This document shows positions 4,604 through 40,718 of a stretch of DNA of 64,000 bases, piece by piece. Under the pieces are notes generated by a model. That model searched no databases and was not told the origin of the DNA. It saw nothing but the letters and a program-made list of their open reading frames with translations. The position numbers and the translations under genes are program-made. Position 1 is the first letter of the stretch, and every line of letters starts with the position of its first letter. Source of the DNA: Candidatus Nomurabacteria bacterium (GTDB lineage: Bacteria; Patescibacteriota; Minisyncoccia; Phycocordibacterales; UBA9973); contig CP060230.1 of the NCBI GenBank assembly GCA_023898605.1, positions 67,944-131,943 of the forward strand. The letters run 5' to 3'.

Positions 4604-4741
4604 ATGTTTTGGCATACTATTGGTCAATACCAGTACGAACATGATGCAAATGGGTACACGGGATGGTACCGTTGCGTCGGAGGTAAAATGGCCAACGGCC
4701 ACTGGCCCGAGTGGAATAACAGAACTGGAGCCACGCGGTAA
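4604..4741 (+). CDS. Small protein, 45 aa, aromatic/Gly/Asn-rich (MFWHTIGQYQYEHDANGYTGWYRCVGGKMANGHWPEWNNRTGATR)
   Basis: A perfect Shine-Dalgarno AAAGGAGG lies 7 nt upstream of the ATG. This is exceptional here, since other genes lack SD sequences. A promoter is upstream and two hairpin terminators are downstream. It is absent from the ORF track because it is shorter than 60 aa. Confidence 0.5.
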   Translation: MFWHTIGQYQYEHDANGYTGWYRCVGGKMANGHWPEWNNRTGATR

Positions 4742-4836
4742 AATCGCAAAAAATCAACACCCCATCTAGTAGCGAAAGCGAACGATGGGGTTTTGAACTT
4801 ATTAAGGTGGCAAGGTCATAGAATTCAAAATATAAT

Positions 4837-4863
4837 AAAACCCCGTTTTCACGGGGCTTTTTC
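4837..4863 (+). terminator. Rho-independent terminator
   Basis: CCCCG-TTTTCA-CGGGG stem-loop followed by CTTTTT. Confidence 0.6.
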
Positions 4864-4899: not shown

Positions 4900-5202
4900 A
4901 TGCAAAAGTACGTAAAATATTCTCTTAAATTAGCATATAGTTTTGTTTTGTCAGTCGTATTTTCTTTTTGTTTATCTGCAAGTATACCTATGATCTTTGG
5001 TGACAATTTAAGAGATTTTTTTGATTTTCAGGATAAACCATATGGATATGTAGGATTGTTTCTGCTTACTATATCTAGTATTTTATTTTTTGTGTTATAC
5101 GAAAAAAATAATAGTATCTTTAGGTCATTTGAAAGAATAACAATACTTCTTATTTATTTTGTCATTTTATCCTCATTTTTTACAGCGAGTGTGCAATATT
5201 AA
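4900..5202 (+). CDS. Hypothetical small membrane protein
   Basis: Three predicted hydrophobic helices. No recognisable domain. Confidence 0.4.
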   Translation: MQKYVKYSLKLAYSFVLSVVFSFCLSASIPMIFGDNLRDFFDFQDKPYGYVGLFLLTISSILFFVLYEKNNSIFRSFERITILLIYFVILSSFFTASVQY

Positions 5203-5206
5203 ATAT

Positions 5207-5488
5207 ATGAAAACTATAGAAAAGATATACAAATTTATATACTCAGTCTTTCTTTCTCTACCAATTATTTTACTTATAAATGTAACTTTTATTCTTTTTT
5301 TTAAGAGAGCCTCTTTTTTTCATAGTTTTGCCACTATTGGCATAGCTATAGTTCTCTCTATACCTTTTACATTTTTGATATTCAGATCAGTTTTAAGAGA
5401 GCGAAGATTTATTTTGGTTGTAGAAAGGTCTATTATAGTTTTAGTATTCTTTTTTATTGCATTTATTTTTTCAAGATTAATTTTCTAG
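5207..5488 (+). CDS. Hypothetical small membrane protein
   Basis: Internal ATG (MKTIEKIYKF...) chosen to avoid overlap with the previous ORF. The product is hydrophobic. Confidence 0.35.
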   Translation: MKTIEKIYKFIYSVFLSLPIILLINVTFILFFKRASFFHSFATIGIAIVLSIPFTFLIFRSVLRERRFILVVERSIIVLVFFFIAFIFSRLIF

Positions 5489-5527
5489 ACAAAAATTAAT
5501 CTTTGTTTTATATAAATCAGTATCTCT

Positions 5528-5725
5528 TTACTCTTCAAAAATTCGGGGGATTTTTACTACAATTGATAGACATGGATCATCGAAATTATGGATAAGAAAT
5601 GGCGGAGACGCTCTCCCTTCACTTCTTTTGACAACGATACTCATATCATCATTTTTTTCAGGGATGAAAATCGTTGCCCCAGTCGGACAGGTATAGCATT
5701 TCTGCTTTTTGTTTTTTTCTGACAT
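5528..5725 (-). CDS. Small Cys-containing protein (CYTCPTGA motif), possibly ferredoxin-like
   Basis: 65 aa with three Cys. CPTGAI resembles the terminal motif of mono-cluster ferredoxins. Weak. Confidence 0.25.
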   Translation of the reverse strand: MSEKNKKQKCYTCPTGATIFIPEKNDDMSIVVKRSEGRASPPFLIHNFDDPCLSIVVKIPRIFEE

Positions 5726-5806
5726 AAGAAAGATCCAATTTAGTTATCACCATATTACATCATATAAACTATAGTGTCAAGTTGTAATATTTATCGAAAA
5801 ATATAC

Positions 5807-5822
5807 GTTTTTTTGCTATAAT
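5807..5822 (+). promoter_or_regulatory. Extended -10 promoter (TGCTATAAT) for the leuS leader
   Basis: TGnTATAAT at about 5812-5820, roughly 150 nt upstream of leuS. Confidence 0.35.
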
Positions 5823-5831
5823 CGAGGGACA

Positions 5832-5954
5832 ATGGAGGGGAAATATGACCATAAAAACATAGAAAAAAATGGCCCTCCTTCGCTTCTTCTTCGCCAAGTC
5901 TACGAAGAACAAGGCAAGGCTACGGCGGGCGCACAGATATATGCACTAAGGTGA
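5832..5954 (+). CDS. Candidate 40-aa leader peptide upstream of leuS containing Leu-Leu-Leu (CTT CTT CTT)
   Basis: ORF is MEGKYDHKNIEKNGPPSLLLRQVYEEQGKATAGAQIYALR and ends 17 nt before the leuS ATG. The triple-Leu codons sit inside a TTCTTCG/CGAAGAA hairpin. Confidence 0.25.
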   Translation: MEGKYDHKNIEKNGPPSLLLRQVYEEQGKATAGAQIYALR

Positions 5955-5970
5955 AATATTTAATTTAAGT

Positions 5971-8900
5971 ATGAATAACTATGATCACAAAGGAATAGAA
6001 CGTAAGTGGCAAGAGAGGTGGGAGAAAGACGGTATTTATACTGTTTCGGACAAGGAAGAAAACAAAGATAATTTCTATACTCTAGTAGAATTTACATATC
6101 CATCTGGAGATTTGCATGTTGGCCACTGGTACGCGTTTGCAGTGCCAGATATTTTCGCACGATATAAAAGGATGCAAGGATACAACTCACTTTATCCTAT
6201 GGGATTTGATGCGTTTGGACTACCAGCAGAAAATGCAGCGATAAAACTAGGCGCAGATCCAAAGGTTTGGACATATGAGCAGATGGACAAGATGCGTGGG
6301 CAATTCAAAACAATGGGAGCAAGTTTCGACTGGGATAGAGAGGTAGTTTCTTGCGACCCGAATTATTACAAATGGACACAGTGGATGTTCAACCAATTTC
6401 TAAAAAATGATTTGGTTTATCGCGATACTACCAAGGTAAACTGGTGTCCCAAAGACAAGACAGTTCTTGCCAATGAACAAGTTGTAGACGGCAAATGCGA
6501 GCGATGTGGAAGTGAAGTAGAGCAGAAGAACCAGGATCAGTGGATGATTCGTATTACAAAATATGCCGATAGATTGATAGACGATCTGGATATTCTAGAT
6601 TGGCCAGATGCGATAAAAGATGCACAAAAAGCATGGATAGGAAGAAGCGAAGGAAGTGAGATAAGTTTTTCTCTAAATTATGAAAAAGAAAAAGTAAAAA
6701 ATGAATATTTCAAGTTTAGACCAGAACTTGTTGAATTAATTGAAAAAGGTTTGAAGACAGCAACCTTTAGAATGGAAGCTAAAAATGTTTCTGTTGGCGA
6801 TATTGTTAGTTTGATTAATTGGTCAGATGGCAAAGAAAGTAATCAAAAAGAGTTTGATAAAGCTAAAATAATAAAAGTCTCGGAACATAAATTAGGAGAT
6901 TTGCCACTTGATTATCCTGGTCACGAAAAAGATTCTTCAGTAGAAAAAAGACTTGCAAGGTATCAAGAATACTATGGCGACCACATAACAAACGATTCAA
7001 CTGTTTATATATATGAATTTCTTCCTCTTTCAATTCGTGTTTTCACCACTCGCGCAGACACACTATTTGGCGTGACATATGTTGTACTTGCTCCAGAACA
7101 CCCACTAGTAAATAAACTTCTTGATCAAGTAGAGAACAAAGAAGAAGTAGAAAAGTATATAGAAGAAACAAAGAAAAAGTCAGAACTAGAAAGACAAATT
7201 GGTTCAAAAGATCCTTCGACTGGCTCAGGACTAGGAAAAACTGGCGTAGAATTAAAAGGTATAACTGCAATAAACCCAGCAAATGGTGAAGAAGTGCCAG
7301 TTTGGATTGCAGACTATGTGCTTGCTGGGTATGGTACAGGTGCTGTTATGGCGGTACCTGCTCACGATGAGCGAGATTTTGAATTTGCAAAGAAATATGG
7401 ATTAGATTCTAAAATAGTTATTGTGAATTCGACCGGAGAGTGTACAGACGATGCTATTTCAAGAAATGTTGTTAAATCTTTTATAGAAAAGGACGGAAAT
7501 GTATATTTAGTAAGAGATATAGGTCCAAGCGGAAAGTCTTACTGGTCACTTCCTGGTGGTGGATATGAAGATGCAGAAGACGATATCTCTGCACTTACAA
7601 GAGAAATCATGGAAGAAACTCCATTTCGAAATATAAAAATTGGACAATTCATAGGGGCATCAAGACATTGCTATGATTTCAAAGCTATAAAAAATTCACG
7701 TTTAACAAAAATATTTTACGCAAGTTATGATATTGAGAATAAAAATTCAAACCCTCAAGTTCCTGGAAACTGGTTTCCAAAAGATGAGGCAATAAGGATG
7801 CTTTTGGAAGATGGAATAATAATAGAAGGAAACATACTAAGTAACTACTTTGAAGGAAAAATTAATACAGATAATGGAATTTTGATAAATTCTGGAAATT
7901 TTAATGAAATAACTTCAGAAGAAGCTAAGAAAAAAATCACAGAATTTGTTGGAGGAAAAATGGTAAAGACTTACAGACTTCGTGACTGGGGAATAAGCCG
8001 CCAGAGATATTGGGGTTGTCCTATACCTATAGTTTACGATCCGGAAGGAAAAGCTCACGCGATCCCAGACGAACATTTGCCATGGATATTGCCGACAGAT
8101 GTAGATCATACTCCAGACGGAACACCACCTCTTGCAAGAAGCAAAGAGCTTTTTGAACGAACAGAAAAAATATTTGGCGAAGGTTGGAAGCCAGAAGTAG
8201 AAACAATGGATACATTTGTAGATTCTTCTTGGTATTTCTATAGATACTTAGATAACAAAAACGAAAAAGAATTTGCATCGATAGATAGTATGGATGCATG
8301 GATGCCGATAGATATGTACATGGGAGGAGCAGAGCATACAACTATGCACTTACTATATTCACGATTCTGGACAAAAGCTCTTTATGATCTCGGACTAGTA
8401 AAAGATAACGAGGCATATAAGATGAGACGAAACAGAGGGCTTATACTTGGTCCAGATGGAAACAAGATGAGTAAATCAAAAGGAAACGTCATAAATCCAG
8501 ACGAAGTTGTAGATAGGCTTGGTGCAGATACGGTGCGATTGTACCTTTGTTTTATGGGGCCATACGGAGTGACTGTAAACTATCCGTGGGATCCAAACGG
8601 GGTTGTAGGTGTGAGAAGATTTCTAGAAAGAGTTTGGAAATTGAAAGAAAAAATAGATCCAGAGAAAAAAGTTTGTCGTACAGACCCACTTGTACACAAA
8701 ACAATCAAAGGCGTCACGAGTGACATGGAAGAGTTCAAGTTTAACACTGCTATATCCAAGATGATGATACTATCCAACGCTTTGGAAGGAGAGGATAAGA
8801 TAGTAGAAGCTTCTTATAAAGCCCTGCTTCGTCTTCTTTCACCATTTGCACCACACATAACAGAAGAGTTATGGCAATCTTTTGGACATTCTTCGTCAGG

Positions 8901-9159
8901 CTCAGAACAAGGAACAGAAAGTATCCACCTTTCTTCTTGGCCAGAATACGATGAGAGCATGACAAAAGACGAGACCGTTATGATTGGTATTCAGATTAAC
9001 GGCAAGGTTCGTGGTGAAGTAGAGGTTGGAGACGAAGATACAGAAGAATCAGTGAGAGAGAAGGTTATGTCTATAGACAAGATAAAACCATGGTTAGAAG
9101 GAAAAGAAATCAAGAAATTTATCTACGTAAGCAAGAAGATTGTTAACATTGTCGTATGA
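5971..9159 (+). CDS. leuS: Leucyl-tRNA synthetase with inserted ASCH-like and Nudix domains
   Basis: HVGH (HIGH) motif, [23 protein letters not shown], editing-domain motif [20 protein letters not shown] and KMSKS. Two extra blocks are present relative to canonical LeuS. One is [20 protein letters not shown] (ASCH-like). The other is [26 protein letters not shown] (Nudix box). Total length is 1062 aa. Confidence 0.9.
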   Translation: [1062 protein letters not shown]

Positions 9160-17092: not shown

Positions 17093-17215
17093 GCTCAGTA
17101 CCGACGTCCCGACATGTGGTCGTCGGGAGCACGGAGAGCCGACAGAATCGTCGGCTTTGGTTAGAGCACTCGCCTGAAGAGCGAGGTGTCGGCAGTTCGA
17201 GTCTGCCCCCGAGCA
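17093..17215 (+). pseudogene. Second tRNA-Phe copy lacking a 5' acceptor strand, with a 59-nt double-hairpin insertion in the D-loop after GCTCAG
   Basis: Positions 17158-17215 are identical to the 3' 58 nt of tRNA-Phe (TGGTTAGAGC...CCCGAGCA). GCTCAG lies at 17093-17098. The insert at 17099-17157 is built from CCGACG/CGTCGG and GCCGAC/GTCGGC hairpins. Confidence 0.6.
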
Positions 17216-27314: not shown

Positions 27315-27857
27315 ATGCAAAACCCAAACTTGATTATTCGGTACATTTTTCCATTGATTAATTCAAATGGAATTGACTCTAGTATTGGATTTTTGACCGA
27401 CACAGAGATACAGGGTTGTAATATACACTTTGTATCCAATTTCTTCTGGAATGAATTTTATCCCACTAAGTATAGTGGAATGGAGATTCTAGAAGAGTGC
27501 ATCAATCAGTCACTCATGGAAAATCCACGAGAAATTTTTTTGTTTCTTGTTCAGATGAAGCAGGCAGACAAACTGATTTCGCGTGAGAAAATACCCATGC
27601 CATGCATTCACCCCAAAGACATGATTCTCGGAAACACTGTTCTGGAAATTCAAAACATTTCAGAACTAAAAAAGATGAGAGGTGGAGTACCTGCTTCGAT
27701 TTCGGATATACCTTATATCGAGGTTGGCTCAAAGAGGAGAGATCATGTCATCTATCCGTTTACCTTTGAGTTCGACATTGATCCAAAAGAAGTCGGAAGG
27801 CCATTTTTTGGAATCGACAGCGTCGAATTTCCAAACCACAAAAAACAGATATCTTAA
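27315..27857 (+). CDS. Hypothetical protein, paralog A of tandem pair
   Basis: Shares blocks FFWNEFYPTKYSGMEILE and IPMPCIHP with the next gene. Unknown family. Confidence 0.5.
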   Translation: MQNPNLIIRYIFPLINSNGIDSSIGFLTDTEIQGCNIHFVSNFFWNEFYPTKYSGMEILEECINQSLMENPREIFLFLVQMKQADKLISREKIPMPCIHPKDMILGNTVLEIQNISELKKMRGGVPASISDIPYIEVGSKRRDHVIYPFTFEFDIDPKEVGRPFFGIDSVEFPNHKKQIS

Positions 27858-27865
27858 ATCACAAG

Positions 27866-27892
27866 CACCCCACGTCGGGGTGCTTTTCTTTG
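27866..27892 (+). terminator. Terminator GCACCCC-ACGTC-GGGGTGC + TTTTC (copy 1)
   Basis: Near-identical copy at 28510-28538. Confidence 0.65.
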
Positions 27893-27943
27893 ACAAGAAA
27901 TATTATATGGGTGTATATTCAGAAATGAATAAAACCCTCAGTT

Positions 27944-28504
27944 ATGAAAGAAACATATCTCATTTTGAGACAACTGTACTTTACCAGTATAGGAGAACCT
28001 TATATCTTCGTAAGCGAAGATGAACTTTTCCACGGAAGGAATTTTAACACCAGGGTTGAAGAAATTTATATTGTTTCTGAATACTTTTGGAAACAAAACC
28101 CTCATAAGTACTTTGGAATGGAAAAATTAGAATCTTTAATTTCTGAACGCGTTGAAGATCATAGGTCTGCACGTATTATTTTTTTCTTTATGGAGAAAAA
28201 TTATCTTGATAAAATTATCAAGAGATCTTGTATTCCTATGCCAATGATTCCTCCCGGGTGTATTGCCTACGGTATTGATATTCGCCCCATGCTTTTTTAT
28301 TCTATAGAAATCGATAAAAATCTTCGCATCGGACATATCGGAGACAAAGAAGCACCCATTGTGTGGACAGATGAGGAAAAACCAAGACCTTTGGTTGGAT
28401 CAGTATTTTTCAATTATGATTCCATGTTAAAATATCCGGACGGCATAATACCTTTGTATATAGCTGGTCCAGGCTTCAATGACGCTCGCTTTAAGGTTAT
28501 CTGA
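27944..28504 (+). CDS. Hypothetical protein, paralog B of tandem pair
   Basis: Motifs YFWKQNPHKYFGMEKLE and IPMPMIPP align with paralog A. Preceded by the same promoter-like sequence (TTGACA..ATATGGGTGTATATTCAGAAATGAAT.AAACCCTC). Confidence 0.5.
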   Translation: MKETYLILRQLYFTSIGEPYIFVSEDELFHGRNFNTRVEEIYIVSEYFWKQNPHKYFGMEKLESLISERVEDHRSARIIFFFMEKNYLDKIIKRSCIPMPMIPPGCIAYGIDIRPMLFYSIEIDKNLRIGHIGDKEAPIVWTDEEKPRPLVGSVFFNYDSMLKYPDGIIPLYIAGPGFNDARFKVI

Positions 28505-28509
28505 AATAG

Positions 28510-28538
28510 TGCACCCCGCGTCGGGGTGCTTTTCTTTT
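28510..28538 (+). terminator. Terminator GCACCCC-GCGTC-GGGGTGC + TTTTC (copy 2)
   Basis: Duplicate of the terminator at 27866. Confidence 0.65.
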
Positions 28539-28574
28539 GACAAAATCTGATTTTTGATGTAATTTAACAAAAAA

Positions 28575-29135
28575 TTGAAAACTATGGTTAAGAAATATTT
28601 ATTTCCCAGGAACAGACTCGTTTTGACATTCAGGGGTTTAAGATTCACAATTGCTTTTGGATACGACAAAAACTGTTTTGGAGGGAAGAATAATATATTT
28701 TTTTCTTCTCTACTTTATTCTCAGGTCTATTTCTTTTTGGAGGTCCCCAATGACCTGGGCGGTATCGAAGCTTTTCATAGAATCCAGCCATCTTCTGGTA
28801 AAAAAGTGTATGCCGAAGGTGCTGGGGGACCGTTTTTCTACCCAAGTGAATTTTTTGATTTCATGGTTTCGGATATTTCTGAAGCAATTATGAATAATAA
28901 ATCACAGCAAGCAGAAGAATGGAAAAGGTTTATGAATAGCATCGTCGTTATAACCGTTGGTCCCCAGAAAAATATCGTGGGTTTCTGGTTCGAGGATGAT
29001 GTGATTCATGAGATTGGTGGAGCAGTTCTCACCAAAAGGTTCGAAGATCTCCAGCACGTGTTTGAATCTTTTCCAAGACGTATGGTTTTGGCTGCTGTAA
29101 AAAAAAGGGCGGGAAACAACAAAGGAAAAAGATAA
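28575..29135 (+). CDS. Hypothetical protein
   Basis: 186 aa with no recognisable domain. Has its own promoter-like TTGACA-N17-TAATTT. Confidence 0.4.
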   Translation: MKTMVKKYLFPRNRLVLTFRGLRFTIAFGYDKNCFGGKNNIFFSSLLYSQVYFFLEVPNDLGGIEAFHRIQPSSGKKVYAEGAGGPFFYPSEFFDFMVSDISEAIMNNKSQQAEEWKRFMNSIVVITVGPQKNIVGFWFEDDVIHEIGGAVLTKRFEDLQHVFESFPRRMVLAAVKKRAGNNKGKR

Positions 29136-29287: not shown

Positions 29288-29568
29288 AGCAAGGTATACT
29301 CATCTGTCGCTATCTAAGTTACCAGTTCTTATACAACTGCTCATCAAGCTCTAAAGATATTGATAACTATTGCTCAGTCTGACCTTTATTTTCCGCGTCG
29401 TTGGCGCAAAGCACTTGCGGCAACAGATTTTTCTTTTTTTCGAGGGAGGTCCTTTCTCAAAAGTTTTGATGCAAGTTTGCCAACTTTTTTACTAGTTTTT
29501 GCCATAAAATTATATAAATTAATTATTAATATCGACCAATATAGAAATATGTGGAAAACTGTACATTG

Positions 29569-29595
29569 AAAACTTTCTATATATTTTCTATAATA
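29569..29595 (+). promoter_or_regulatory. Promoter TTGAAA-N17-TATAAT overlapping direct repeats GAAAACT x2; ATG 6 nt after the -10, so the mRNA looks leaderless
   Basis: GGAAAACTGTACATTGAAAACTTTCTATATATTTTCTATAAT lies upstream of the LexA-MTase ATG at 29602. Confidence 0.4.
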
Positions 29596-29601
29596 TCATA
29601 C

Positions 29602-31050
29602 ATGATTACAAAAAAGCAAAAAAATGTGCTGGATTTTATAAAAAATTTTCAGCAAAAAAATGCTATATCCCCATCATTAGAAGAAATTAAGAAAAAATTT
29701 GGTTTAGCTTCCGTTTCTACAGCTTCTTATTATGTTGAAAAACTAGAAAGCAAAGGATATTTAAAAAAAGACGACAAACAACACAGAGGAATATCGGTTT
29801 TTGAAAACGAAAGCATGGTAAAAATACCTTTACTTGGCGTAATTGCTGCTGGAGAACCAATACAATCCATAGAAAACCGTGAAGAGATTGCACTTCCAAA
29901 GAGTAGGATAGGCAACAACAATAATGTTTTTGCATTGAGGGTCTCAGGAGACAGTATGATCGACGAAAATATACAAGACGGTGATGTGGTTGTTGTAAGA
30001 GAAACTAAAAACCCCACAAACGGTGATAAGGTTGTCGCATTAATAGATCGAGAGAATGTTACTTTAAAAACTTTTTATAAGGAAAAAAAACAAATTTTAC
30101 TTAAACCAGCAAATAAAAAATATGACTCGATTGTCATAGATAAAAATAGAGAATTTGAAATTCAAGGAGTGATGATTGATATTGTAAAACAATCATTTAA
30201 CAATCCTGTAGATATTATATTTCCAGAAAAGGCGCAGAAACGAAAAACGACTATTCCTCTAAATAAAGTAGTGTGTGGAGATTGTGTTGATGTGATGAAA
30301 AATATACCAGACAACTCCGTTGACATGGTCGTTACTTCTCCACCTTATGATGATGTAAGAAACTATAATGGTTTTAGTTTTAACCTACACGACACAGGTA
30401 AAGAAATCTTTAGAATTTTAAAAGACGGTGGTGTTGTAGCTATGGTTATCCAAGATCAAACAAAAAATTTTGGTAAAAGTTTAACATCTTTTAGAACTAT
30501 CGTTGATTGGGTGGATAATATAGGTTTTAAATTATTTGAAACAGTAATTTATAGAAAACATGGTACCGAGGGGGCATGGTGGAAATATCGTTTTAGGGTA
30601 GATCATGAATATATGCCAATTTTTATTAAAGGAGAAAGACCCAGCTATTTTAATAAAGAAAATCTTAAGATACCCTCAAAGCATGGTGGAAAAGTAATGA
30701 CTGGTAGTGGAAATAGAAAGACTGATGGAACAACAACAAAAACAGTTACAAGACCTATAAATTTAAATAAATGCCGTGGAACTATTTGGGATTATTTGAA
30801 TGCAGGTGATAAGAATCCATTAAAAAGAAAACATCCAGCTGTATTCCCAGATCAAATTCCTGTGGATTTTATAGATTGTTTTTGTCCGCCTAAAGGCATA
30901 GTCCTTGATCCGTTTGTAGGTTCAGGATCAACACTAGTTGCCGCTAAAAAGCTCGGGAGAAATTATATTGGGATTGATATCTCACAAGAGTATTGTGATC
31001 TAACAGAGGAAAGATTAAAAAAGGATATACCAAACACCTTATTTAAATAG
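29602..31050 (+). CDS. Fusion protein: full-length LexA-like repressor (HTH + S24 peptidase) fused in frame to a beta-class N4/N6 DNA methyltransferase
   Basis: Residues 1-205 align along their length with LexA. Matching blocks are MITKKQKNVLDFI, IPLLGVIAAGEPI (Ala-Gly cleavage site), LRVSGDSMIDENIQDGDVVVV (Ser) and VTLKTFYK..LLKPAN (Lys). The remainder has PDNSVDMVVTSPPYDD (motif IV, SPPY) followed by DPFVGSGSTLVAAKKLGRNYIGIDI (motif I). The ATG at 29602 was chosen; the track's GTG at 29551 is less likely. Confidence 0.8.
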   Translation: MITKKQKNVLDFIKNFQQKNAISPSLEEIKKKFGLASVSTASYYVEKLESKGYLKKDDKQHRGISVFENESMVKIPLLGVIAAGEPIQSIENREEIALPKSRIGNNNNVFALRVSGDSMIDENIQDGDVVVVRETKNPTNGDKVVALIDRENVTLKTFYKEKKQILLKPANKKYDSIVIDKNREFEIQGVMIDIVKQSFNNPVDIIFPEKAQKRKTTIPLNKVVCGDCVDVMKNIPDNSVDMVVTSPPYDDVRNYNGFSFNLHDTGKEIFRILKDGGVVAMVIQDQTKNFGKSLTSFRTIVDWVDNIGFKLFETVIYRKHGTEGAWWKYRFRVDHEYMPIFIKGERPSYFNKENLKIPSKHGGKVMTGSGNRKTDGTTTKTVTRPINLNKCRGTIWDYLNAGDKNPLKRKHPAVFPDQIPVDFIDCFCPPKGIVLDPFVGSGSTLVAAKKLGRNYIGIDISQEYCDLTEERLKKDIPNTLFK

Positions 31051-31053
31051 ATT

Positions 31054-32079
31054 TTATTCCATCTTATCAGGAGTTTCTAAGGTGTATTCTATATTTATTC
31101 CACTTGTCATTGCCCAAGATAATGGGTTTTTATCAAAAAACGCCTTGAAATTAACATTTGTTAATGTTTTTCCGTCTTTTTCGAAACTGCTTTTTGTAAA
31201 TTTATACAATTTAAATCCATTCCATCTCCACGAATTTTTCTTGTATTCCCACTTAGTTAAAGAGCCAAGCAATGTTAAGAATTTTTCAATTCTCTCCACT
31301 GCACCTTGATTAATTTTATAGCTAGTTCCATCTTCCTCAGTATTGTAATGTTCGCCATCTTTAGTTGATATTTTTAATCTATCACCCCTTTCGTGAGGAA
31401 TACTTATTTTATCCCTTTCTCTAAAGAAATTATCCATCTCTCTCATCAAGTTTATAATTGTTGTATATTTTTCATTTTCAAAAATTACATTTAAAGGGCT
31501 ATTTTTTTTATCAGCATCAAGATAATTTAACCAATTTAAAACATTCTCCGGATAACTAAATAAAACATTGAAAACACCATCTGTGAAATATAGTGGCGGT
31601 ATAGAATCCTCATCCAAAGCGACACGAGTGTGTTCGTTTACTATTCCCATAAGAATATGAATTGTTGCCAGTGGATATTTAAGACGAAAGTCATGTTTTC
31701 CGTCATACTCTCTTAAATTATTTGGCTGGATACAGTTTTTAAATTTTTCATCCCAATTTGCAGGTTTATTATTTTTATTTAAAAGCAACATATGGTGACC
31801 CAAACTACGAATATCGCCTCTGGAGATTTCCATGTCTAAAAAGATACAATCTTTTGGTTTAATTCCATCCTTTAAAACCATAACCTTCCCATCATAAAAA
31901 CCTTCTATAGTCCAATCAAAATAATGAGACATGAACAGCCCACATAGCAAACCGTCACTATCCGGACTAAGAATTGCTTTATGATTTCTCTCAACGATCC
32001 AAGGATATTTTTTGATTAAATCTTTATAATCAATTTTATCATTGTGTCTATTTTCTAATAATCTCTGTATATTTGACAT
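31054..32079 (-). CDS. Putative Type II restriction endonuclease (by context)
   Basis: 341 aa with no confident catalytic motif by eye. It ends 3 nt from the convergent MTase stop and is directly preceded by a C-protein gene. This is the classic C-R arrangement. Confidence 0.4.
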   Translation of the reverse strand: MSNIQRLLENRHNDKIDYKDLIKKYPWIVERNHKAILSPDSDGLLCGLFMSHYFDWTIEGFYDGKVMVLKDGIKPKDCIFLDMEISRGDIRSLGHHMLLLNKNNKPANWDEKFKNCIQPNNLREYDGKHDFRLKYPLATIHILMGIVNEHTRVALDEDSIPPLYFTDGVFNVLFSYPENVLNWLNYLDADKKNSPLNVIFENEKYTTIINLMREMDNFFRERDKISIPHERGDRLKISTKDGEHYNTEEDGTSYKINQGAVERIEKFLTLLGSLTKWEYKKNSWRWNGFKLYKFTKSSFEKDGKTLTNVNFKAFFDKNPLSWAMTSGINIEYTLETPDKME

Positions 32080-32083
32080 AAAT

Positions 32084-32305
32084 TTATTTAACGAAAAAAT
32101 CTAGCGATTTTTTATAAAGTTTTGCAAACTCTTTGAGTTGCAAAACATCAAAGCGTCTTTGTCCAGATTCTATCTTTGAGACATAAGATTGAGTTCTGCC
32201 AAGTTTTTCAGAGACTCCAATCTGACTTAAACCAGCTTCAAGACGCGCTTTTTTCAAGCGTTCTACTATTTTCTTATGGTCGTCTTGATAAATCGCTCTT
32301 GGCAT
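32084..32305 (-). CDS. Controller (C) protein, XRE-family HTH
   Basis: 73 aa. The HTH is EAGLSQIGVSEKLGRTQSYVSKIESGQ. Positioned immediately upstream of the putative REase, as in PvuII, BamHI and Esp1396I systems. Confidence 0.65.
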   Translation of the reverse strand: MPRAIYQDDHKKIVERLKKARLEAGLSQIGVSEKLGRTQSYVSKIESGQRRFDVLQLKEFAKLYKKSLDFFVK

Positions 32306-32544
32306 ATATCTATATAATAGTATTCCATTGTGTATTATTCCAAATTGCCATATAATTTATATAGACCCGCCCGAAGCCCCATCGCCATACCTTTTCAAAA
32401 AGAATCCCTTCGCGAAAAAGAAAAAGAATGGAGATGCGGAACGGGGCGAGGGCGGAGCGCCGAGGTACAAGGTGCTAGTCGGCATGATTAGTAGTTTTCG
32501 AAAAAAGTTCGCGCATTGGTTATAATTTCATCACAAAGTACACA

Positions 32545-32570
32545 AAAATCCCACGCAGGTGGGATTTTTG
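32545..32570 (+). terminator. Hairpin terminator
   Basis: ATCCCAC-GCAG-GTGGGAT followed by TTTTT. Confidence 0.5.
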
Positions 32571-32707
32571 GTCTTTGTGACCCTAGTCGTGGTGCGACCA
32601 TACGATTCGTTGCTCCCACAATGCTTTTTTGGCTTTTTCTATTATATCAAGTCGACCCTTGTCGAGCGACAAAAAGTGACAAAAGTGACACAGGTTTAAA
32701 TAAAAAG

Positions 32708-32733
32708 GTTACAGCAATCTGTAACCTTTTTGC
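32708..32733. terminator. Bidirectional terminator downstream of aspS
   Basis: GGTTACAG-CAAT-CTGTAACC flanked by A-runs and T-runs. Confidence 0.6.
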
Positions 32734-32737
32734 TACT

Positions 32738-34030
32738 TTATGGATTTAATCGCTTAACATCTCTTGGGAGATAAGTCGCCTCGCGAACATTTGGCAGGTC
32801 GAGGATTTTCATAATGAATCGTCCAGGACCAATACCTGCACCTCCATGTGGAGAGCATCCCCATCGGAAAAAGTTGAGATAATCTTTTAATTCTTCAAGA
32901 GACATACCTTTCTCTTTTGCTTGTTTCTCAAGTATCTCAATGCGGTGCTCACGTTGTGCAAGAGTCGTTACTTCAATACCTTTAAACAAAAGGTCTGCGC
33001 GCTTGCCCCGACCTTCTTCGTTGCGCATATGATAAAAGGCACTTTTTGATACATGGTATTCAGTAATGAAGACGAAGTCGTGATTGTGCTTTTCTCGTAC
33101 GTATTCACTGATAGCGCGCTCTTCTTCTGGAGAGAGATCGTGTTCTTCTCCGCTTGCCACACCACGCTCTGCAAGTATCTTTTTTGCTTCAACCATCGTA
33201 ATCTGCGGAAAAGGCATACTAGGGATTTCTAGTTGGAGCTCTGGAAACTTTTCTTTTAATCGGGTAAATCCAGAAACTATCATATTTTCCTCGGCAACAA
33301 TGATGTCCTGATGAGATTCAATGTAGGCCATTTCAAAATCCCAACCAGTAAATTCTGTAAGGTGTCGGGTTGTAAATGAAAGCTCTGCTCGAAATACAGG
33401 ACCTGTCATAAACACTCTTTCAAAACCACTTGCAATAGCCATTTGTTTATAGAACTGTGGTGACTGTGCAAGATATGCCTTGCGGTCAAAGTAGTTAACT
33501 TCAAAGACTTCAGCACCAGTTTCGCTTGGCGTTGACATGAATGAGGGTGTATAGATTTGAATAAAATTATTTTTATCCCAGTAGTCACGGAAGCCTTTTT
33601 CAAGTTCCGTCCATACCTTGAAAATCTTTAGATGATCTGGTTTACGAAGATCAATCCAGCGATAGTCGAAACGTATAGGTGCTTCAGTTTCTTCTCCACC
33701 CTTCTTTTCAATAATTGGTATCGGTAGCTGTGCATCGGCAGCTGAAAGTACTTCGATTGAAGTAGCTTCTATTTCATAACCACAAGGTGCCTGAGCTGCC
33801 TCTTTCACAAGGCCTACAACTTTAACCACTGATTCTGTAGTAAGTTCCTTGGCAATTTGAAAAGCCTCGGCCTGTTCAATGGTAACGACTGTTTGCAAGA
33901 TACCAGTTACATCCCGAACAATAAGGAATGCGATTTTACTTTGCGCACGTATAGTATGAGCAAAGCCTACGACAGTAGTCTCTTTCCCTGAATACTCAGG
34001 AATGTCTTTAATATAGGTTCTTATAATCAT
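32738..34030 (-). CDS. aspS: Aspartyl-tRNA synthetase, archaeal/eukaryal type (class IIb, 430 aa)
   Basis: Motif 2 is FRAELSFTTRHLTEF. The C-terminus PHGGAGIGPGRFIMKILDLPNVREATYLPRDVKRLNP resembles archaeal AspRS ...PRDRKRLTP. AsnRS is not fully excluded. Confidence 0.75.
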   Translation of the reverse strand: MIIRTYIKDIPEYSGKETTVVGFAHTIRAQSKIAFLIVRDVTGILQTVVTIEQAEAFQIAKELTTESVVKVVGLVKEAAQAPCGYEIEATSIEVLSAADAQLPIPIIEKKGGEETEAPIRFDYRWIDLRKPDHLKIFKVWTELEKGFRDYWDKNNFIQIYTPSFMSTPSETGAEVFEVNYFDRKAYLAQSPQFYKQMAIASGFERVFMTGPVFRAELSFTTRHLTEFTGWDFEMAYIESHQDIIVAEENMIVSGFTRLKEKFPELQLEIPSMPFPQITMVEAKKILAERGVASGEEHDLSPEEERAISEYVREKHNHDFVFITEYHVSKSAFYHMRNEEGRGKRADLLFKGIEVTTLAQREHRIEILEKQAKEKGMSLEELKDYLNFFRWGCSPHGGAGIGPGRFIMKILDLPNVREATYLPRDVKRLNP

Positions 34031-34310
34031 ATTTATTAGAGATGAAGGAACAAAAATGCCCCTTCGAACTTATGTTGATAAGCTCGCAGGGGCGATAGTA
34101 TATCGCGGTGCCACCCTACTTTTTTCTCTGGCTCCGTATCGTTGCCTCCCCGTTGTCAGTGGTTCAAAGGCTTCGATATGCAGTAACGCTACTATATCAC
34201 AAACACATACTTAAGTAAAGCGGTAGCGAAAAGCTTTTCGCAAGTATGCTATGTATTTCTAGTCCTGCATAGTCTTAGCAAACATAGTGAACTCTGTCAT
34301 CAATATATAC

Positions 34311-35594
34311 ATGACAGAAATAATAAAAGACAATTTAAAGTATTGTTTGTACGCCCGCAAATCAACCGAAGCAGAAGAAAAACAAGCTCTTTCTATTGAT
34401 TCCCAAATCAAAGAAATGAAGCAAATAGCTGATCGTGAAGGGTTAAATATTGTTGAGATTCGTCGTGAATCTCATAGTGCAAAAGAATCAGGTCAACGAC
34501 CAGTATTTGAAGAAATACTAAAGGATATAGACGACGGCATATTTAACGCCATTATCACTTGGGCACCAGATAGATTAAGTCGTAATGCAGGAGACCTAGG
34601 AAAACTGGTTGATCGTATAGATCAAAAGAAACTAACTCAAATCAAAACTTTTGGTCAGACATTTACAAACTCACCAAGTGACAAATTTCTTCTTATGATT
34701 TTGTGTTCTCAAGCAAAACTTGAGAATGACAACAAGAGTATTAATGTGAAGCGAGGTATGAGAGCACGGTGTGAAATGGGATTATGGCCAGTACAGCCAC
34801 CAACTGGATATAGAAAGCCAAATGAGAGATTGTCTAAATGTGAAGTAGAGATTGATCCAGAAAGAGCACCGGTTATCAAACAAATTTTTGAAAAGATTGC
34901 ATACGAACGATGGAGCGGAATGAGAGTATATTCGTGGTTGCGATATGAATTAAATTTTAAAACACACAAAGGATTCTATTTAAGTGTCGGAAATGTATTT
35001 AAGATAATCAACAACACCTTTTATTACGGACGATTTGAATTTCCACAAGGAAGTGGAAACTGGTATGACGGAAAACACACACCAATAATCAGTAAAGAAC
35101 TTTTTGATGATTGTCGATCTGCAATTAAAACACAGGTCATAAAAACCCATGGAAAAGAGTTTGCGTTTACTCGAATGGTGAAATGTGGATCGTGCGGATC
35201 GGGGATTACTGCTGATGAGAAGTTCAAGAAGTTGCTAAACGGAGGAGTAAATAGACATGTCTATTATAGGTGTACGAAGTCGAAAGATAGAAAATGTACG
35301 AATCCTGCAATAAACGAAGACGATCTATTAAAAGAATTTCAGAAAATGGCAGGAACTTTGGAACTTAATGAAGTACAACTTAATGAGAAATTAAATCTTG
35401 AAATTAAGAAATTCAAAAAACTTCAAGCGATGTTTTTAGGAAAGGACAACCCAGCAGATATACAGAAAGTTGATCTCAGAAATTACATGAAATTCGTTTT
35501 GAAAGACGGAACAATTTTAGAAAAACGATCGGTTCTTGATTGTATAAAAAACGATCTAGTTTTGAAAAATAAGATCATAATAGTTAAAGAGTAA
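34311..35594 (+). CDS. Large serine recombinase (resolvase-domain + recombinase domain + zinc-ribbon)
   Basis: N-terminus CLYARKSTEAEEKQALSIDSQ carries the catalytic Ser. A zinc-ribbon Cys cluster follows (CGSCGS...YYRCTKSKDRKC). ATG at 34311. Confidence 0.8.
   Translation: MTEIIKDNLKYCLYARKSTEAEEKQALSIDSQIKEMKQIADREGLNIVEIRRESHSAKESGQRPVFEEILKDIDDGIFNAIITWAPDRLSRNAGDLGKLVDRIDQKKLTQIKTFGQTFTNSPSDKFLLMILCSQAKLENDNKSINVKRGMRARCEMGLWPVQPPTGYRKPNERLSKCEVEIDPERAPVIKQIFEKIAYERWSGMRVYSWLRYELNFKTHKGFYLSVGNVFKIINNTFYYGRFEFPQGSGNWYDGKHTPIISKELFDDCRSAIKTQVIKTHGKEFAFTRMVKCGSCGSGITADEKFKKLLNGGVNRHVYYRCTKSKDRKCTNPAINEDDLLKEFQKMAGTLELNEVQLNEKLNLEIKKFKKLQAMFLGKDNPADIQKVDLRNYMKFVLKDGTILEKRSVLDCIKNDLVLKNKIIIVKE
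34311..35594 (+). mobile_element. Serine-recombinase gene marking a probable integrated element (extent undefined)
   Basis: Followed by a perfect 11-bp hairpin (35614-35648), a 10-bp hairpin (35683-35708) and tRNA-Glu. Downstream are two sigma factors and the repeat-flanked cassette. Confidence 0.4.
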
Positions 35595-35710
35595 AACTAA
35601 CTTTTTAAACAAAAATACCTAACGAGATCATCGTTAGGTATTTTTGTTATTCTTTATAGCAAGGGTATTTAGTGACCCTTGTCGAGTGCTCGAACTAGCA
35701 CTCGACTCTG

Positions 35711-35782
35711 TGACCCTACGGGGAATCGAACCCCGATTACCGGCTTGAAAAGCCGATGTCCTAACCGTTAGACGATAGGGCC
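35711..35782 (-). tRNA. tRNA-Glu (anticodon TTC)
   Basis: Minus strand: acceptor GGCCCTA/TAGGGTC (one G-U pair). D-arm GTCT-AACGGTTA-AGAC. Anticodon stem TCGGC/GCCGG with loop TTTTCAA. T-arm CGGGG-TTCGATT-CCCCG. Confidence 0.75.
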
Positions 35783-36140: not shown

Positions 36141-36710
36141 ATGAAAAATATGCAAACCCTCTCCGACCATCAATTGGTCCAAATGTTCATGAGTGATGGA
36201 AATGAACAAGCTTTTGGTGAAATCTATCTTCGGTACGAAAATCCCGTGAGAGATTTTATTAAAAAATTGTTTTACGGCAGTAAAATGCCAAACTGTCAGG
36301 ACGAAGATGATATCGTTCAAGAAACCTTCCTGAATGTACATAGTGCCTTGAAAAGAGGCCTGTACAAGAATGAAGGGAGAATGAAGGCATGGATCTTTAC
36401 TGTCGCAAAGAATCTTTTTCTGACAATTTTCCAAAAAAACAAAAGGAAGCCAGTGTCGGAACTCAATGATTGGTATTCTAAAATGGTGTTTTTGCCAGAT
36501 ATAGAGAACAGAATGTTCTCCGAAAGGGCTTTCGAATTTCTACTAAAAAGCGGTAGAGATTATGATTGTTTGTTTTTGTATGCGATTGGTTTGAAATACA
36601 ACCAAATTGCAGAAGTCATGAATATCTCCAAAAACACCGTAGGGGCAAAAATATTTAAACAAAGAAAATCTTTGGAAGAGGTTTTTGCCCCAGAGAGATC
36701 AGAACGTTGA
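36141..36710 (+). CDS. ECF-type RNA polymerase sigma factor (sigma-70 family, regions 2 and 4)
   Basis: Region 2 is DIVQETFLNVHSAL. The region-4 HTH is YNQIAEVMNISKNTVGAKIFKQRKSL. A promoter TTGTAA-N16-TATAAT lies upstream. Confidence 0.75.
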   Translation: MKNMQTLSDHQLVQMFMSDGNEQAFGEIYLRYENPVRDFIKKLFYGSKMPNCQDEDDIVQETFLNVHSALKRGLYKNEGRMKAWIFTVAKNLFLTIFQKNKRKPVSELNDWYSKMVFLPDIENRMFSERAFEFLLKSGRDYDCLFLYAIGLKYNQIAEVMNISKNTVGAKIFKQRKSLEEVFAPERSER

Positions 36711-38723: not shown

Positions 38724-39668
38724 ATGCACCTTAACAAAAGCCAACAAAAAGAAGTACAAAAATTTCTACAGATGGTAGGTGCTAAAAAGCCACTTACCTT
38801 AGAAGAAGAAAAAAGACTCTTTGAAAAGAGTCTTTCAAAAGACCAAATTAAAAAATTATTGATTTCGCACAATGCTCGTTATATTGTGCATGTAGTGAAA
38901 GAACACCTTTACGAAGGTGTTGAAATAGCTGACCTTCTACAAGAAGGATTGGTAGCGACTTATGTCGCTGCCGATAAATTTGACCATACTCGTGGTTTTA
39001 AATTTATCAGCTACGCTACTCATTACATGAAAGCGTATATTTTGAAATTTTGTTCAGAGGAGATTAATTTTAGCCTAAGTGAGATGCTAAAACACATTAA
39101 GGTAAAAAAAATTTCTTCAATTTTTGAACAAAAGTTTGGGATATACCCTCTAATTCAAGATATTGCCTTTGACGAGGAGGTGATGGAATACCTTGGAATT
39201 AGTAGTGGGAATCTTAAAAAAATTTTTTACAAAATAGAGGTTCTTTCCTTGGAAGCTACTTACAAGGAAAGAAGGGATGGAGAATCCTATACCTCAAGTG
39301 TTTCACCAATCGATGTGTTGATTGATGAAACCTTCGCGATCGATCCTGAGATGGAGAAGGAGTCCTTCAGGATGGACTTAAAAGAGTTTTTCAAAATCTT
39401 AAATATCCGTCTAAGGACGGACTTGTCCTTTCTTATCTTCAATATAGGTTCGCAAGAGCTTATAAAAGATTCGAAGGACAATCTCGTCCAAGAATTGATG
39501 GAAGAATATCCATCAGGATATGAAGTTGACTTGGAAACCCTGGGACTCGTCTTGGGGATTAGCAAGGAAAGGGTAAGGCAAAGGATTCATAAGAGCATCT
39601 CTGAGCTAAGAAAAAGGGAGAAGCTTGTGAGTCTGTTTTTTGAAAAACATAGAAGCCTTCTTAATTGA
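38724..39668 (+). CDS. Sigma-70-family RNA polymerase sigma factor (314 aa)
   Basis: Region 2 is DLLQEGLVATYVAADKFDHTRGFKFISYATHYMKAYI. The region-4 HTH is LETLGLVLGISKERVRQRIHKSISELRK. It has its own promoter, TTGACT-N17-TATAAT. Confidence 0.75.
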   Translation: MHLNKSQQKEVQKFLQMVGAKKPLTLEEEKRLFEKSLSKDQIKKLLISHNARYIVHVVKEHLYEGVEIADLLQEGLVATYVAADKFDHTRGFKFISYATHYMKAYILKFCSEEINFSLSEMLKHIKVKKISSIFEQKFGIYPLIQDIAFDEEVMEYLGISSGNLKKIFYKIEVLSLEATYKERRDGESYTSSVSPIDVLIDETFAIDPEMEKESFRMDLKEFFKILNIRLRTDLSFLIFNIGSQELIKDSKDNLVQELMEEYPSGYEVDLETLGLVLGISKERVRQRIHKSISELRKREKLVSLFFEKHRSLLN

Positions 39669-39672
39669 AGGC

Positions 39673-39724
39673 TTTTTTTATTCTCTATCTACTCTCTCAT
39701 CGAGAAGTACTGGCTCTATGTCGC
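39673..39724. repeat. 52-bp perfect direct repeat, copy 2 (native rmuC 3' end; encodes EPVLLDERVDRE-stop on the minus strand)
   Basis: Identical to 38603-38654. Confidence 0.9.
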
Positions 39725-40718
39725 TAGATGCTCCAGCGATACGCAAGACGTCTTTGTCGACTTTCTTGAGTTCTTTTCCAGAAGAGTTATAGTGATTTAC
39801 TGCAGTCGATAAGGTGTTGCCGAGTTTGTTATGATAATCCTCATAAGCTTTCAAGTGTTTACCTAGATCTTCAACTCTTTTGATTATTTCTTGTGCGCGT
39901 TCTTCTATCTCTAGAGCTTTGAGCCCTTGGAGAACAGTTTGGAGGAATGCTAGGAATGAAGTAGGAGAGACTATGATAACTTTTTTTTCTTTGAACGCAT
40001 AGTCTATGAGGTCACGAGTGTTGACCTTGATACCGCCGACTTGAGCAACAAGAAGATCATAATATATAGCTTCGTGAGGTATGAACATAAACGCAAAGTC
40101 CATAGTTCCTTCGCTTGGTTTTACGTATTTACTTGTTTCGTCGATACGAAGCTTGAGATCGTTCTTGAACTGCTTCTCCAACTCTTCTCTTCGAGACTTA
40201 TCTTTTTCTTCGACAAGACGGTTGTAGTTTTCTAGAGAAAACTTGGAGTCTATCGGTATAATCTTGTCTTTGACGAAAACAACTGCATCGACAATAGTAC
40301 CGTCTTTGAAACCATACTGTACTTGGTATGAGCTTGGAGGAAGAACATTTTTCAAAACTGTTTCTAGATAATATTCGCCCAAGATACCTCTTTGTTTTGG
40401 ATTCTTGAGTATGTCCTGGAGACTTTCTAGCTGTTCGGCGAAACCTACAACTTGTTTTCCGGTTTCTTTGACTTCAGTAAGTTCGCGAGTTATTTCTCGT
40501 ATTATTTTTTGTGATTCTCCCGCTTGGTATCGTATAGATTCGTTGACTTGTCTTTCTGTTTCGCGGAGTTTCTGATCGAGAGTATTGGAGAGGTTGTTTA
40601 GTTGCTGTAGTAGTAGGGAAGAGTCGCCATCTTTTGGAGAAGAGTTCTTGTTTTTGGAAAGATAAAAAATAATCCCCAAAAGCATGATGACTATAATTCC
40701 AAAAAAGATGTTTTCCAT
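39678..40718 (-). CDS. rmuC: DNA recombination protein RmuC
   Basis: N-terminal TM helix, a coiled coil, then GILGEYYLETVL, IPIDSKF and MFIPHEAIYYDLL blocks typical of RmuC. Confidence 0.8.
   Translation of the reverse strand: MENIFFGIIVIMLLGIIFYLSKNKNSSPKDGDSSLLLQQLNNLSNTLDQKLRETERQVNESIRYQAGESQKIIREITRELTEVKETGKQVVGFAEQLESLQDILKNPKQRGILGEYYLETVLKNVLPPSSYQVQYGFKDGTIVDAVVFVKDKIIPIDSKFSLENYNRLVEEKDKSRREELEKQFKNDLKLRIDETSKYVKPSEGTMDFAFMFIPHEAIYYDLLVAQVGGIKVNTRDLIDYAFKEKKVIIVSPTSFLAFLQTVLQGLKALEIEERAQEIIKRVEDLGKHLKAYEDYHNKLGNTLSTAVNHYNSSGKELKKVDKDVLRIAGASSDIEPVLLDERVDRE

Follow-up and report, generated by a model that had tools for sequence, protein, structure and literature searches.

A LexA repressor fused to a DNA methyltransferase in Patescibacteria: a putative damage-responsive control of a Type II restriction–modification unit

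Why should the methyltransferase (MTase) of a restriction–modification (R-M) system begin with a complete LexA repressor? The question is raised by a locus at about 29.4–32.4 kb of a 64-kb stretch of a Candidatus Nomurabacteria chromosome (contig CP060230.1; the whole stretch analysed is called the window in the following), where a LexA-MTase fusion gene of 482 codons (29602-31050, + strand) faces the gene of a 341-amino-acid (aa) protein, a putative restriction endonuclease on the basis of gene linkage (31054-32079, − strand). R-M systems must keep methylation ahead of restriction, and the controls known in them comprise controller (C) proteins, MTases bearing a helix-turn-helix (HTH) domain, antisense RNAs and promoter methylation. 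The reading that we consider likely is that the locus is a Type II R-M unit made of a beta-class MTase carrying its own LexA repressor, a presumptive endonuclease and a C-protein, in which autorepression of the MTase gene would be relieved by self-cleavage triggered by activated RecA (RecA*).

The anatomy of the fusion protein agrees with what had been proposed from the bare sequence by a model working without database searches (the sequence-only reading), namely a full LexA joined in frame to a beta-class MTase. The LexA module (aa 1-197; 29602-30192, +) consists of a winged HTH (wHTH) domain, matched by Pfam LexA_DNA_bind (PF01726) over residues 2-63 (2.1e-12), and of an S24 peptidase domain, matched by Peptidase_S24 (PF00717) over residues 76-192 (4.7e-30). 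Residues 2-196 score 172.7 bits with the NCBIfam lexA equivalog TIGR00498, for which the cut-off is 110.95, and in a sequence search of the PDB they align end to end with LexA structures (best 3k2z, 1.8e-29). The Ala-Gly site, catalytic Ser and Lys that had been claimed are all present, as read from the sequence: the predicted cleavage site Ala83-Gly84 (29848-29853, +), Ser118 (29953-29955, +) and Lys156 (30067-30069, +). The beta-class amino-MTase (aa 220-482; 30259-31050, +) is defined by Pfam N6_N4_Mtase (PF01555; residues 240-470, 1.6e-38, profile positions 1-221) and by its motifs, motif IV SPPY (aa 246-249; 30337-30348, +) lying, as had been noted, ahead of motif I FVGSG (aa 438-442; 30913-30927, +), which is the beta-class order; the best PDB matches of residues 214-478 are beta-class and N4-cytosine MTases, and PADLOC calls the domain MTase_II/oMTase. 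We take the SPPY motif to point to N4-methylcytosine, and on this motif the enzyme is probably N4-cytosine specific. An analysis of palindrome avoidance for its recognition site gave no single outlier (GATC, GAATTC and GGCC at approximately 0.67, AGNCT at 0.56). An alternative GTG start codon 17 codons upstream of the ATG would lead to a 499-aa protein; the homologues begin at the ATG.

The two modules are joined by a flexible linker (about aa 198-219; 30193-30258, +). In the AlphaFold2 (AF2) model of the fusion the predicted local distance difference test (pLDDT) is 80-91 across the LexA module, with the MTase standing separate, and falls below 50 for linker residues 199-213, which are therefore modelled as disordered between two well-folded modules. 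The linker is also the least conserved part of the alignment of the fusions (0.47), and it is at the equivalent position that bare MTases of this family begin.

When 5.8 billion proteins were searched, at least 120 clusters of full-length fusions came up, 61-100% identical to that of the window and containing all three domains, from sources named as Nomurabacteria (100% identity), Giovannonibacteria, Pacebacteria and ‘Patescibacteria group’. Scanning one genome per species gave approximately 55 loci in which the fusion is present, distributed over many candidate phyla of Patescibacteria; about 50 species-level genomes, most of them patescibacterial, contain it. Compared with the window, most of these loci show 40-57% identity in LexA and 67-87% in the MTase. 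Each of A83, G84, S118 and K156 is retained by 49 of the 50 aligned fusions, and SPPY by all 50. Since the fusion recurs in many genomes with its catalytic residues kept, a frameshift or assembly artefact is ruled out, the at least 120 clusters deriving from independent assemblies that share a conserved linker position; on this comparison of sequences the fusion is a real and conserved protein, its catalytic residues intact. In the databases these proteins are named either ‘transcriptional repressor LexA’ or ‘adenine methyltransferase’.

The MTase half alone has a much wider distribution, with relatives at 74-79% identity in Clostridia, Bacteroidota, Planctomycetota, Ignavibacteria, Oligoflexia and DPANN archaea, and four architectures are found inside its family: the fused LexA-MTase, a separate HTH+S24 gene placed 25-30 bp upstream of a bare MTase (L052-55, L059 and L080), a fusion with an HTH domain only, lacking S24 (L057), and the bare MTase, which occurs both with and without a C gene. 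The unfused S24 repressors retain GDSM/GNSM and K motifs, apparently equivalent to the catalytic Ser and Lys. In two planctomycete loci the MTases of this family (L072, 1770-3014, and L073) have a possible N-terminal extension of approximately 150 aa with no Pfam match, which could instead be an artefact of start-codon choice.

This variety of architectures has a bearing on whether the S24 domain is there as a protease at all. LexA dimerises through its C-terminal domain, and S24 might be a mere dimerization module of an HTH autoregulator, with neither regulated cleavage nor any link to DNA damage, as could be thought from the existence of the HTH-only fusion L057 and from the SsoII-type MTases, which regulate without any protease (PMC3978073). 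Dimerization alone, however, would not preserve the catalytic residues, and Ala-Gly, Ser and Lys are maintained not only in 49/50 fusions but also, across MTase classes, in 67-68 of the 68 members of the LexA clade described below, while the independently recruited unfused S24 repressors retain their GDSM/GNSM and K motifs. A purely dimerizing S24 domain is for these reasons very improbable.

A phage origin of the fusion was considered and rejected, as 40 related viral loci hold the MTase half only and none has the LexA fusion. The MTases of these phage-like contigs (L098-L137) are orphan copies, 49-70% identical and devoid of LexA or C, and one contig of the 40 contains a homologue, a distant one, of the 341-aa protein. 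They are probably anti-restriction methylases, i.e. what is expected of a methylase that counters a real restriction system.

If the LexA module acts as a repressor of its own gene, its operator should be sought at the promoter. In a promoter scan of 29300-32800 the best match, at 11/12 sigma-70 positions, is TTGAAA-N17-TATAAT (29566-29594, +), the promoter that the sequence-only reading had named; only 7 nt separate its −10 hexamer from the ATG, which makes a leaderless mRNA probable, and the layout is conserved in related loci. The repeat that had been suggested as an overlapping operator, GGAAAAC...TGAAAAC, fared less well: it is not conserved in related loci, the first copy being part of the TGTGGAAAAC box and the second overlapping the −35 hexamer. 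When the 110-nt upstream regions of 50 fusion genes are aligned, a direct repeat with an 11-bp period (consensus ACTTTCTATtTATTTTCTATAAT) appears instead, lying between a TTGCAA/TTGAAA −35 and TATAAT. In the window this predicted operator reads CTTTCTAT-ATA-TTTTCTAT (whole CTTTCTATATATTTTCTAT; 29573-29591, +), occupies the −35/−10 spacer and overlaps the −10 hexamer.

The assignment of this repeat to the LexA wHTH draws on covariation. After the TTC/TCC core of each half-site come three bases that vary among loci and track the middle residue of a triad in the recognition helix (STASYYV, from aa 39, in the window fusion): an aromatic residue or His goes with (T/G)A in 34/34 loci, Gln with GGT in 10/10 and Glu with GGG in 3/3, so that the rule is satisfied in all 47 scored loci, counts that are not phylogenetically independent and from which the scoring pattern skipped two further Glu loci with CTCGGG. 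The same rule holds in the gamma, C5, D12 and DpnI cassettes introduced below. There is thus good comparative evidence that the LexA wHTH reads the 11-bp-period repeat. The geometry fits the repeated evolution of direct-repeat recognition by LexA, described as having occurred several times in a passage that cites work on Patescibacteria (PMC7739468).

The exact operator sequence occurs once in the window, at the promoter of the fusion itself; near-matches at other genes are at chance level, including a cluster in AT-rich sequence upstream of the leucyl-tRNA synthetase gene (5205-5234) that looks like chance, and canonical TTTCACC-type boxes are at chance level in the 64 kb as well. A degenerate copy of the operator and −10 (CTTTTTTGGCTTTTTCTATTATATCA; 32624-32649, +), identical to the MTase promoter at approximately 19 of 26 positions, is found between two terminator-like hairpins downstream of the aspartyl-tRNA synthetase (AspRS) gene and may be a relic promoter. 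Another locus, L056, contains two different LexA-MTase fusions within 6 kb (564-2429 and 4992-6317) with different operators (TTTCGGTT/TTTCGGGT versus TGACACC-N4-TGACACC), which suggests orthogonal repressor/operator pairs in one cell.

The LexA part, when used alone as the query of a HMMER search against 1.84 billion representatives, gave 213 matches at E <=1e-30, and the fusion turned out to be far from isolated. The top 33 or so are nearly all proteins of approximately 390-830 aa in which LexA occupies residues 1-197, most of the ordinary LexAs, approximately 200 aa long, appearing at about 45% identity or below, and each of the 20 long matches examined combines LexA and S24 with a DNA MTase. 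Several MTase families are involved, i.e. the N6_N4 beta-class (in several lengths and in a permuted form), D12 (Dam-like), the gamma-class N6_Mtase/Eco57I/TaqI_C and the C5 DNA_methylase; among the 150 closest LexA representatives (50% clustering) 44 are MTase fusions of at least four MTase classes. In a neighbour-joining tree of 139 LexA domains, without support values and built from the 150 matches closest to the query, a single clade of 68 leaves takes in all 44 fused representatives, the other 71 leaves being free-standing LexAs. The four residues A83, G84, S118 and K156 are kept in the fused-clade members as stated above, and the catalytic residues are invariant in both groups of the tree.

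The genes next to members of the clade are of the R-M type even when LexA is not fused. Of the short LexAs inside it, P0246 lies 15 bp upstream of a DpnI-family gene, P0302 is the first gene of a LexA-Vsr-C5 MTase operon and P0274 is near a HinfI R-M pair, while among the fusions the D12 protein P0391 is convergent with an EcoRV-family endonuclease and the gamma-class P0270 is convergent with an unknown 302-aa gene in a toxin–antitoxin (TA)/abortive infection (Abi) island. A control from outside the clade, P0295, is the first gene of a lexA/Y-family polymerase operon. Several of the LexA-linked cassettes have the promoter architecture seen in the window, a box plus a direct repeat, and two canonical lexA controls have TTCAC(C) repeats with the same 11-bp period. 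The window fusion belongs to a large clade whose LexA modules are attached to R-M genes of many kinds. The canonical promoters of Patescibacteria lexA (L093, approx. 3900-4000; L091, approx. 60-125) carry their TTCAC(C) repeats between −35 and −10, and in L093 lexA is followed by a Y-family polymerase gene. The LexA of a Vsr-C5 MTase operon (L089, approx. 1230-1300) has an apparent palindrome, ACTGT-N12-ACAGT, with no direct repeat, and its recognition helix differs (GVQQHI).

It is at this point that a different origin of the protein has to be weighed, in which the fusion would be the housekeeping SOS repressor that captured an MTase, with genome-wide control of the SOS response and with the R-M linkage as a secondary feature, e.g. 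addiction to an essential regulator. The passing of the LexA equivalog cut-off and the database name ‘transcriptional repressor LexA’ are in keeping with such a role, as is the finding that the fusion is the sole LexA in the 64-kb window, with none other in the flanks, and the 11-bp direct-repeat geometry shared with canonical Patescibacteria lexA operators makes cross-talk conceivable. However, within the window the exact operator is confined to the fusion's own promoter and no repair genes with sites were seen; the canonical lexA controls have the TTCAC(C) half-site, lack the box and adjoin a Y-family polymerase; the module of the fusion groups in the tree with further R-M-linked LexAs; the unit, a low-GC cassette, turns up in different contexts; and recognition helices diversify among close relatives, which is unexpected for the regulator of a fixed regulon. 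With 64 kb of the genome covered, we regard the housekeeping role as quite improbable.

The box that accompanies the operator resembles the DnaA box. In the window it reads TGTGGAAAA (29550-29558, +; just upstream of the −35), with one mismatch to TGTGGATAA(C), the DnaA-box consensus. Within 116 nt upstream of the fusion genes, TGTGGATAA is present exactly in 34/50 and with at most one mismatch in 45/50, against an expectation of 0.0074 per window of that length. The DnaA-box-like TGTGGATAAC element accompanies most promoters of LexA-linked R-M genes, including those of other LexA-linked R-M cassettes and of the unfused S24 repressor genes, the products of which are only about 30% identical; TGTGGATAA(C) was noted in the upstream regions of L001-L058, L052-55, L059, L080, L085, L087, L094 and L096. 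Its sequence is constant whatever the recognition helix, and its placement and orientation vary: the usual place is immediately ahead of the −35, with leader positions and inverted copies found in some cases. It is absent from the two canonical lexA promoters. As a general promoter element TGTGGATAA can be dismissed, one-mismatch copies in the window being at chance level and almost all of the exact copies found in 798 kb of loci being at LexA-linked promoters, and so can a site that belongs to the MTase, as some 20 bare MTases from outside Patescibacteria have no such element upstream. The reader of TGTGGATAAC is probably a conserved host factor, the obvious candidate being DnaA, through which replication would become a further input.

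What, then, does the methylase protect against? The gene of the 341-aa protein converges on the MTase gene with 3 nt between the two stop codons, as had been described, and homologues of the protein adjoin the MTase, fused or bare, in nearly every locus where the flanks allow it to be seen, in bacteria and archaea; the orientation is convergent in most loci, and downstream and co-directional in those of Clostridia and Bacteroidia. It is chiefly because this linkage spans domains of life that the 341-aa protein is taken as the cognate endonuclease. There are approximately 1,019 homologues, those named being all hypothetical proteins, with invariant residues D40-x-D42, D82/E84, H95-H96 and D167 that follow beta-strands in the order of DHH motifs I–IV. 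The protein has no match in Pfam, NCBIfam, PADLOC or the PDB (phmmer/hmmsearch), nor does a Pfam scan of 64 family members yield any. Its AF2 model is of high quality (pLDDT 93.3; predicted template modelling score 0.92), and its fold matches are weak and only to DHH/RecJ/Cdc45 proteins (Z <8), with the C-terminal half unmatched; Foldseek found nothing significant (E >=0.015), the top three being Cdc45/RecJ, and a profile comparison of the family with a DHH protein by hhalign was negative. The topology is at most remotely DHH-like, and the DHH phosphoesterases (RecJ, Cdc45/GAN, NrnA) differ in that they share no sequence or profile similarity with the 341-aa protein; we know of no DHH enzymes that serve as restriction endonucleases. 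The endonuclease of the sequence-only reading is thus upheld by the linkage to the MTase across phyla, and not by a classical restriction endonuclease fold in comparisons of the AF2 model. On the strength of gene linkage and of the conserved Asp/His cluster, the protein is probably a nuclease of an unrecognized family.

The third gene of the unit (32084-32305, −) lies 4 nt upstream of the 341-aa gene and encodes the 73-aa HTH_3 C-protein. The controller position that had been assigned to it is confirmed by the Pfam HTH_3 match (7.9e-13), by weak matches to PADLOC Control_protein (7.5e-5) and by conserved C-boxes. Homologues of the gene are found in the same position in about half of the loci, fused and unfused. 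Its promoter in the scan, TTGGAA-N18-TATTAT, overlaps C-box-like operators ATATGGCAATTTGGAATAATACACAATGGAATA (32314-32352, −), and partly palindromic boxes overlapping the C promoters (e.g. ATATTCCAATTTGGAATAT) are conserved upstream of C genes in more than 30 loci, a pattern that would be expected for a controller protein.

The approximate transferable unit (29428-32425), of tentative boundaries, is bracketed by an imperfect 37-nt inverted repeat (29428-29464/32389-32425) that is 70% complementary. Homology with L003 covers 29500-32401 and with L004 29370-32363, the flanks differing beyond these points; GC is 31-32% within the unit versus 37-42% in the flanks, and the unit sits amid housekeeping genes. 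On the preferred reading the locus at about 29.4-32.4 kb is a horizontally acquired Type II R-M unit of a Patescibacteria (Nomurabacteria-like) chromosome. A GC-rich segment beyond the C-boxes (32365-32536) recurs in L003, the 96%-identical relative, where it has the reverse orientation and lies to the other side of the R-M unit (4681-4856), and similar GC-rich hairpin-like stretches precede the C-boxes in many loci; the segment may be a repeated or mobile element, or may act as an insulating terminator.

How these parts would work together can be outlined as follows. The fusion, dimerized through S24, would bind the direct repeat and repress its own gene, by the same autorepression logic as the N-terminal HTH of the SsoII-type MTases, while the C-protein with its C-boxes would control the 341-aa partner. 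DNA damage, including double-strand breaks caused by self-restriction, would lead to RecA filaments that stimulate cleavage at Ala83-Gly84; the DNA-binding domain would be split from the S24-MTase part, the operator would become empty and a burst of MTase synthesis would follow. The outcome would be a homeostatic loop that restores methylation while the cell's own DNA is being cut and, upon entry into a new host, a programme in which high MTase levels come first. A feedback loop that raises the methylase is the simplest reading because unbalanced R-M activity induces SOS (PMC3874152).

Several points weigh against this proposal. DNA binding, cleavage and RecA dependence are all deduced by comparison, for which the covariation counts lack phylogenetic independence and the LexA tree has the restricted basis given above; recA was found neither in the 64-kb window nor in any of the locus flanks; the HTH-only fusion of L057 shows that a system can work without the S24 part; and none of the PD-(D/E)xK, HNH, GIY-YIG, PLD or half-pipe folds is among the matches of the 341-aa model. 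Furthermore, the fragments of E. coli LexA are degraded after cleavage, so that SOS induction could lower, rather than raise, MTase activity.

The last point opens the way to the same wiring with the opposite outcome, i.e. cleavage that destabilizes or inactivates the MTase (e.g. by exposing degrons), in which case damage, or the activation of RecA by phage, would favour restriction and lead to suicide, abortive infection or killing of the post-segregational type. The conserved catalytic residues show that cleavage matters without showing its direction, R-M systems do act like TA modules (PMC3874152), and the one gamma-class cassette inside a TA/Abi island would suit such a function. The position of the operator speaks for a different sign, as it overlaps the −10, so that losing the DNA-binding domain derepresses by default and synthesis should rise; besides, the linker and the MTase are separate from the S24 core in the AF2 model, so catalysis should escape a direct effect of cleavage. 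Suicidal restriction appears, on balance, unlikely, and derepression of the methylase by self-cleavage continues to be preferred.

Only tentatively can the scheme be extended to all the LexA-linked loci. In this extension a portable cassette, made of the DnaA-box-like element, the direct-repeat operator and the self-cleaving LexA, may be a general layer of R-M control in Patescibacteria and some neighbours, by which methylase output would track the damage sensed by RecA, including self-restriction, and possibly replication; the operator/helix pairs would be orthogonal, and the 341-aa partner would be a restriction endonuclease of an unrecognized DHH-like fold class.

Each component has a counterpart among known systems. 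To LexA itself (TIGR00498; PDB 3k2z, 1jhh and 3jso) the fusion is collinear over approximately 197 residues, with the wHTH, the Ala-Gly site, the Ser-Lys dyad and a predicted operator in its own promoter; it differs by being joined to an MTase, by the half-site TTTCTAT in place of TTCAC(C), by its association with R-M instead of repair genes and by the presence of TGTGGATAAC at the promoter. With the SsoII/Ecl18kI/EcoRII/MspI/ScrFIA-type MTases it shares an N-terminal DNA-binding domain on the MTase, a flexible linker and an operator at the promoter of the system, and in the SsoII type this domain is known to bind the operator and to control expression of the MTase (PMC3978073, PMC2760811). 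Theirs, however, is a short HTH region, approximately 70 aa long and carried by C5 MTases, that lacks a protease and is not known to receive a damage signal, whereas the fusion carries a whole LexA that is portable across at least four MTase classes; the two work alike and are not homologues. The C-protein systems (PvuII, Esp1396I, AhdI and Csp231I) likewise have a small HTH_3 gene upstream of the endonuclease gene and co-directional with it, with C-boxes overlapping the promoter, and Esp1396I has a convergent MTase gene as in the window (PMC2691842). They differ in that the MTase gene of the window has a second regulator, the LexA module, and C is present in approximately half of the loci of the family. 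Finally, S24 repressors of mobile elements, such as lambda CI and SetR of SXT, similarly tie a mobile unit to RecA activation through a self-cleaving repressor, but these have a CI-type HTH and act on lysogeny or transfer genes, while that of the window is a LexA-type wHTH fused to an R-M enzyme.

In the literature covered, outside of which lie most subscription journals, no description was found of LexA- or S24-type R-M control or of LexA-MTase fusions; two R-M reviews (PMC3874152 and PMC12707154) describe no control of the LexA type, the word LexA being absent from the second. What is known is the autoregulation of MTases by an N-terminal DNA-binding domain (SsoII type), and what is new is the self-cleaving SOS module and its spread over MTase classes. 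LexA-wired R-M control is apparently widespread and undescribed. If the proposal is correct, an SOS sensor inside an MTase would constitute a further category of R-M control, with breaks and RecA activation feeding back to the protective enzyme, in Patescibacteria, organisms that have tiny genomes and few regulators. The natural operator/helix pairs (Phe/Tyr/His with CTAT or CGAT, Gln with CGGT and Glu with CGGG) are of use for studies of LexA specificity and as orthogonal repressors; the conserved DnaA-box-like site, and a putative restriction enzyme family of about 1,000 members without a recognizable nuclease fold, offer further handles. The names ‘LexA’ and ‘adenine methyltransferase’, on the other hand, mislead reconstructions of the SOS regulon in candidate phyla.

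Some features of the surrounding genes are worth recording. Directly upstream of the R-M unit there are three tandem open reading frames (ORFs) of 180-186 aa (27315-29135, +) with no Pfam match, the first two of which share motifs (e.g. FW..F/NP.KYxGME) and look paralogous. Past the C gene come AspRS and then, at a distance of about 2 kb, a large serine recombinase (Resolvase + Recombinase + Zn_ribbon_recom; 34287-35594, +), which adjoins a tRNA-Glu (35710-35782, −); the pair may mark a mobile-element boundary. The recombinase region is followed by two sigma-70-family genes close together (36141-36710 and 38724-39668, +) and by an RmuC-family gene (39678-40718, −). The Rfam scan gave tRNAs only, among which a partial tRNA-like match (17153-17207, +; 31.9 bits, model positions 9-63) located 90 nt after a tRNA-Phe may be an integration scar. 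The leucyl-tRNA synthetase of the window (5971-9159, +; 1062 aa) has an unusual architecture, in which an ASCH domain (aa 248-352) and a NUDIX domain (aa 506-610) flank the editing domain.

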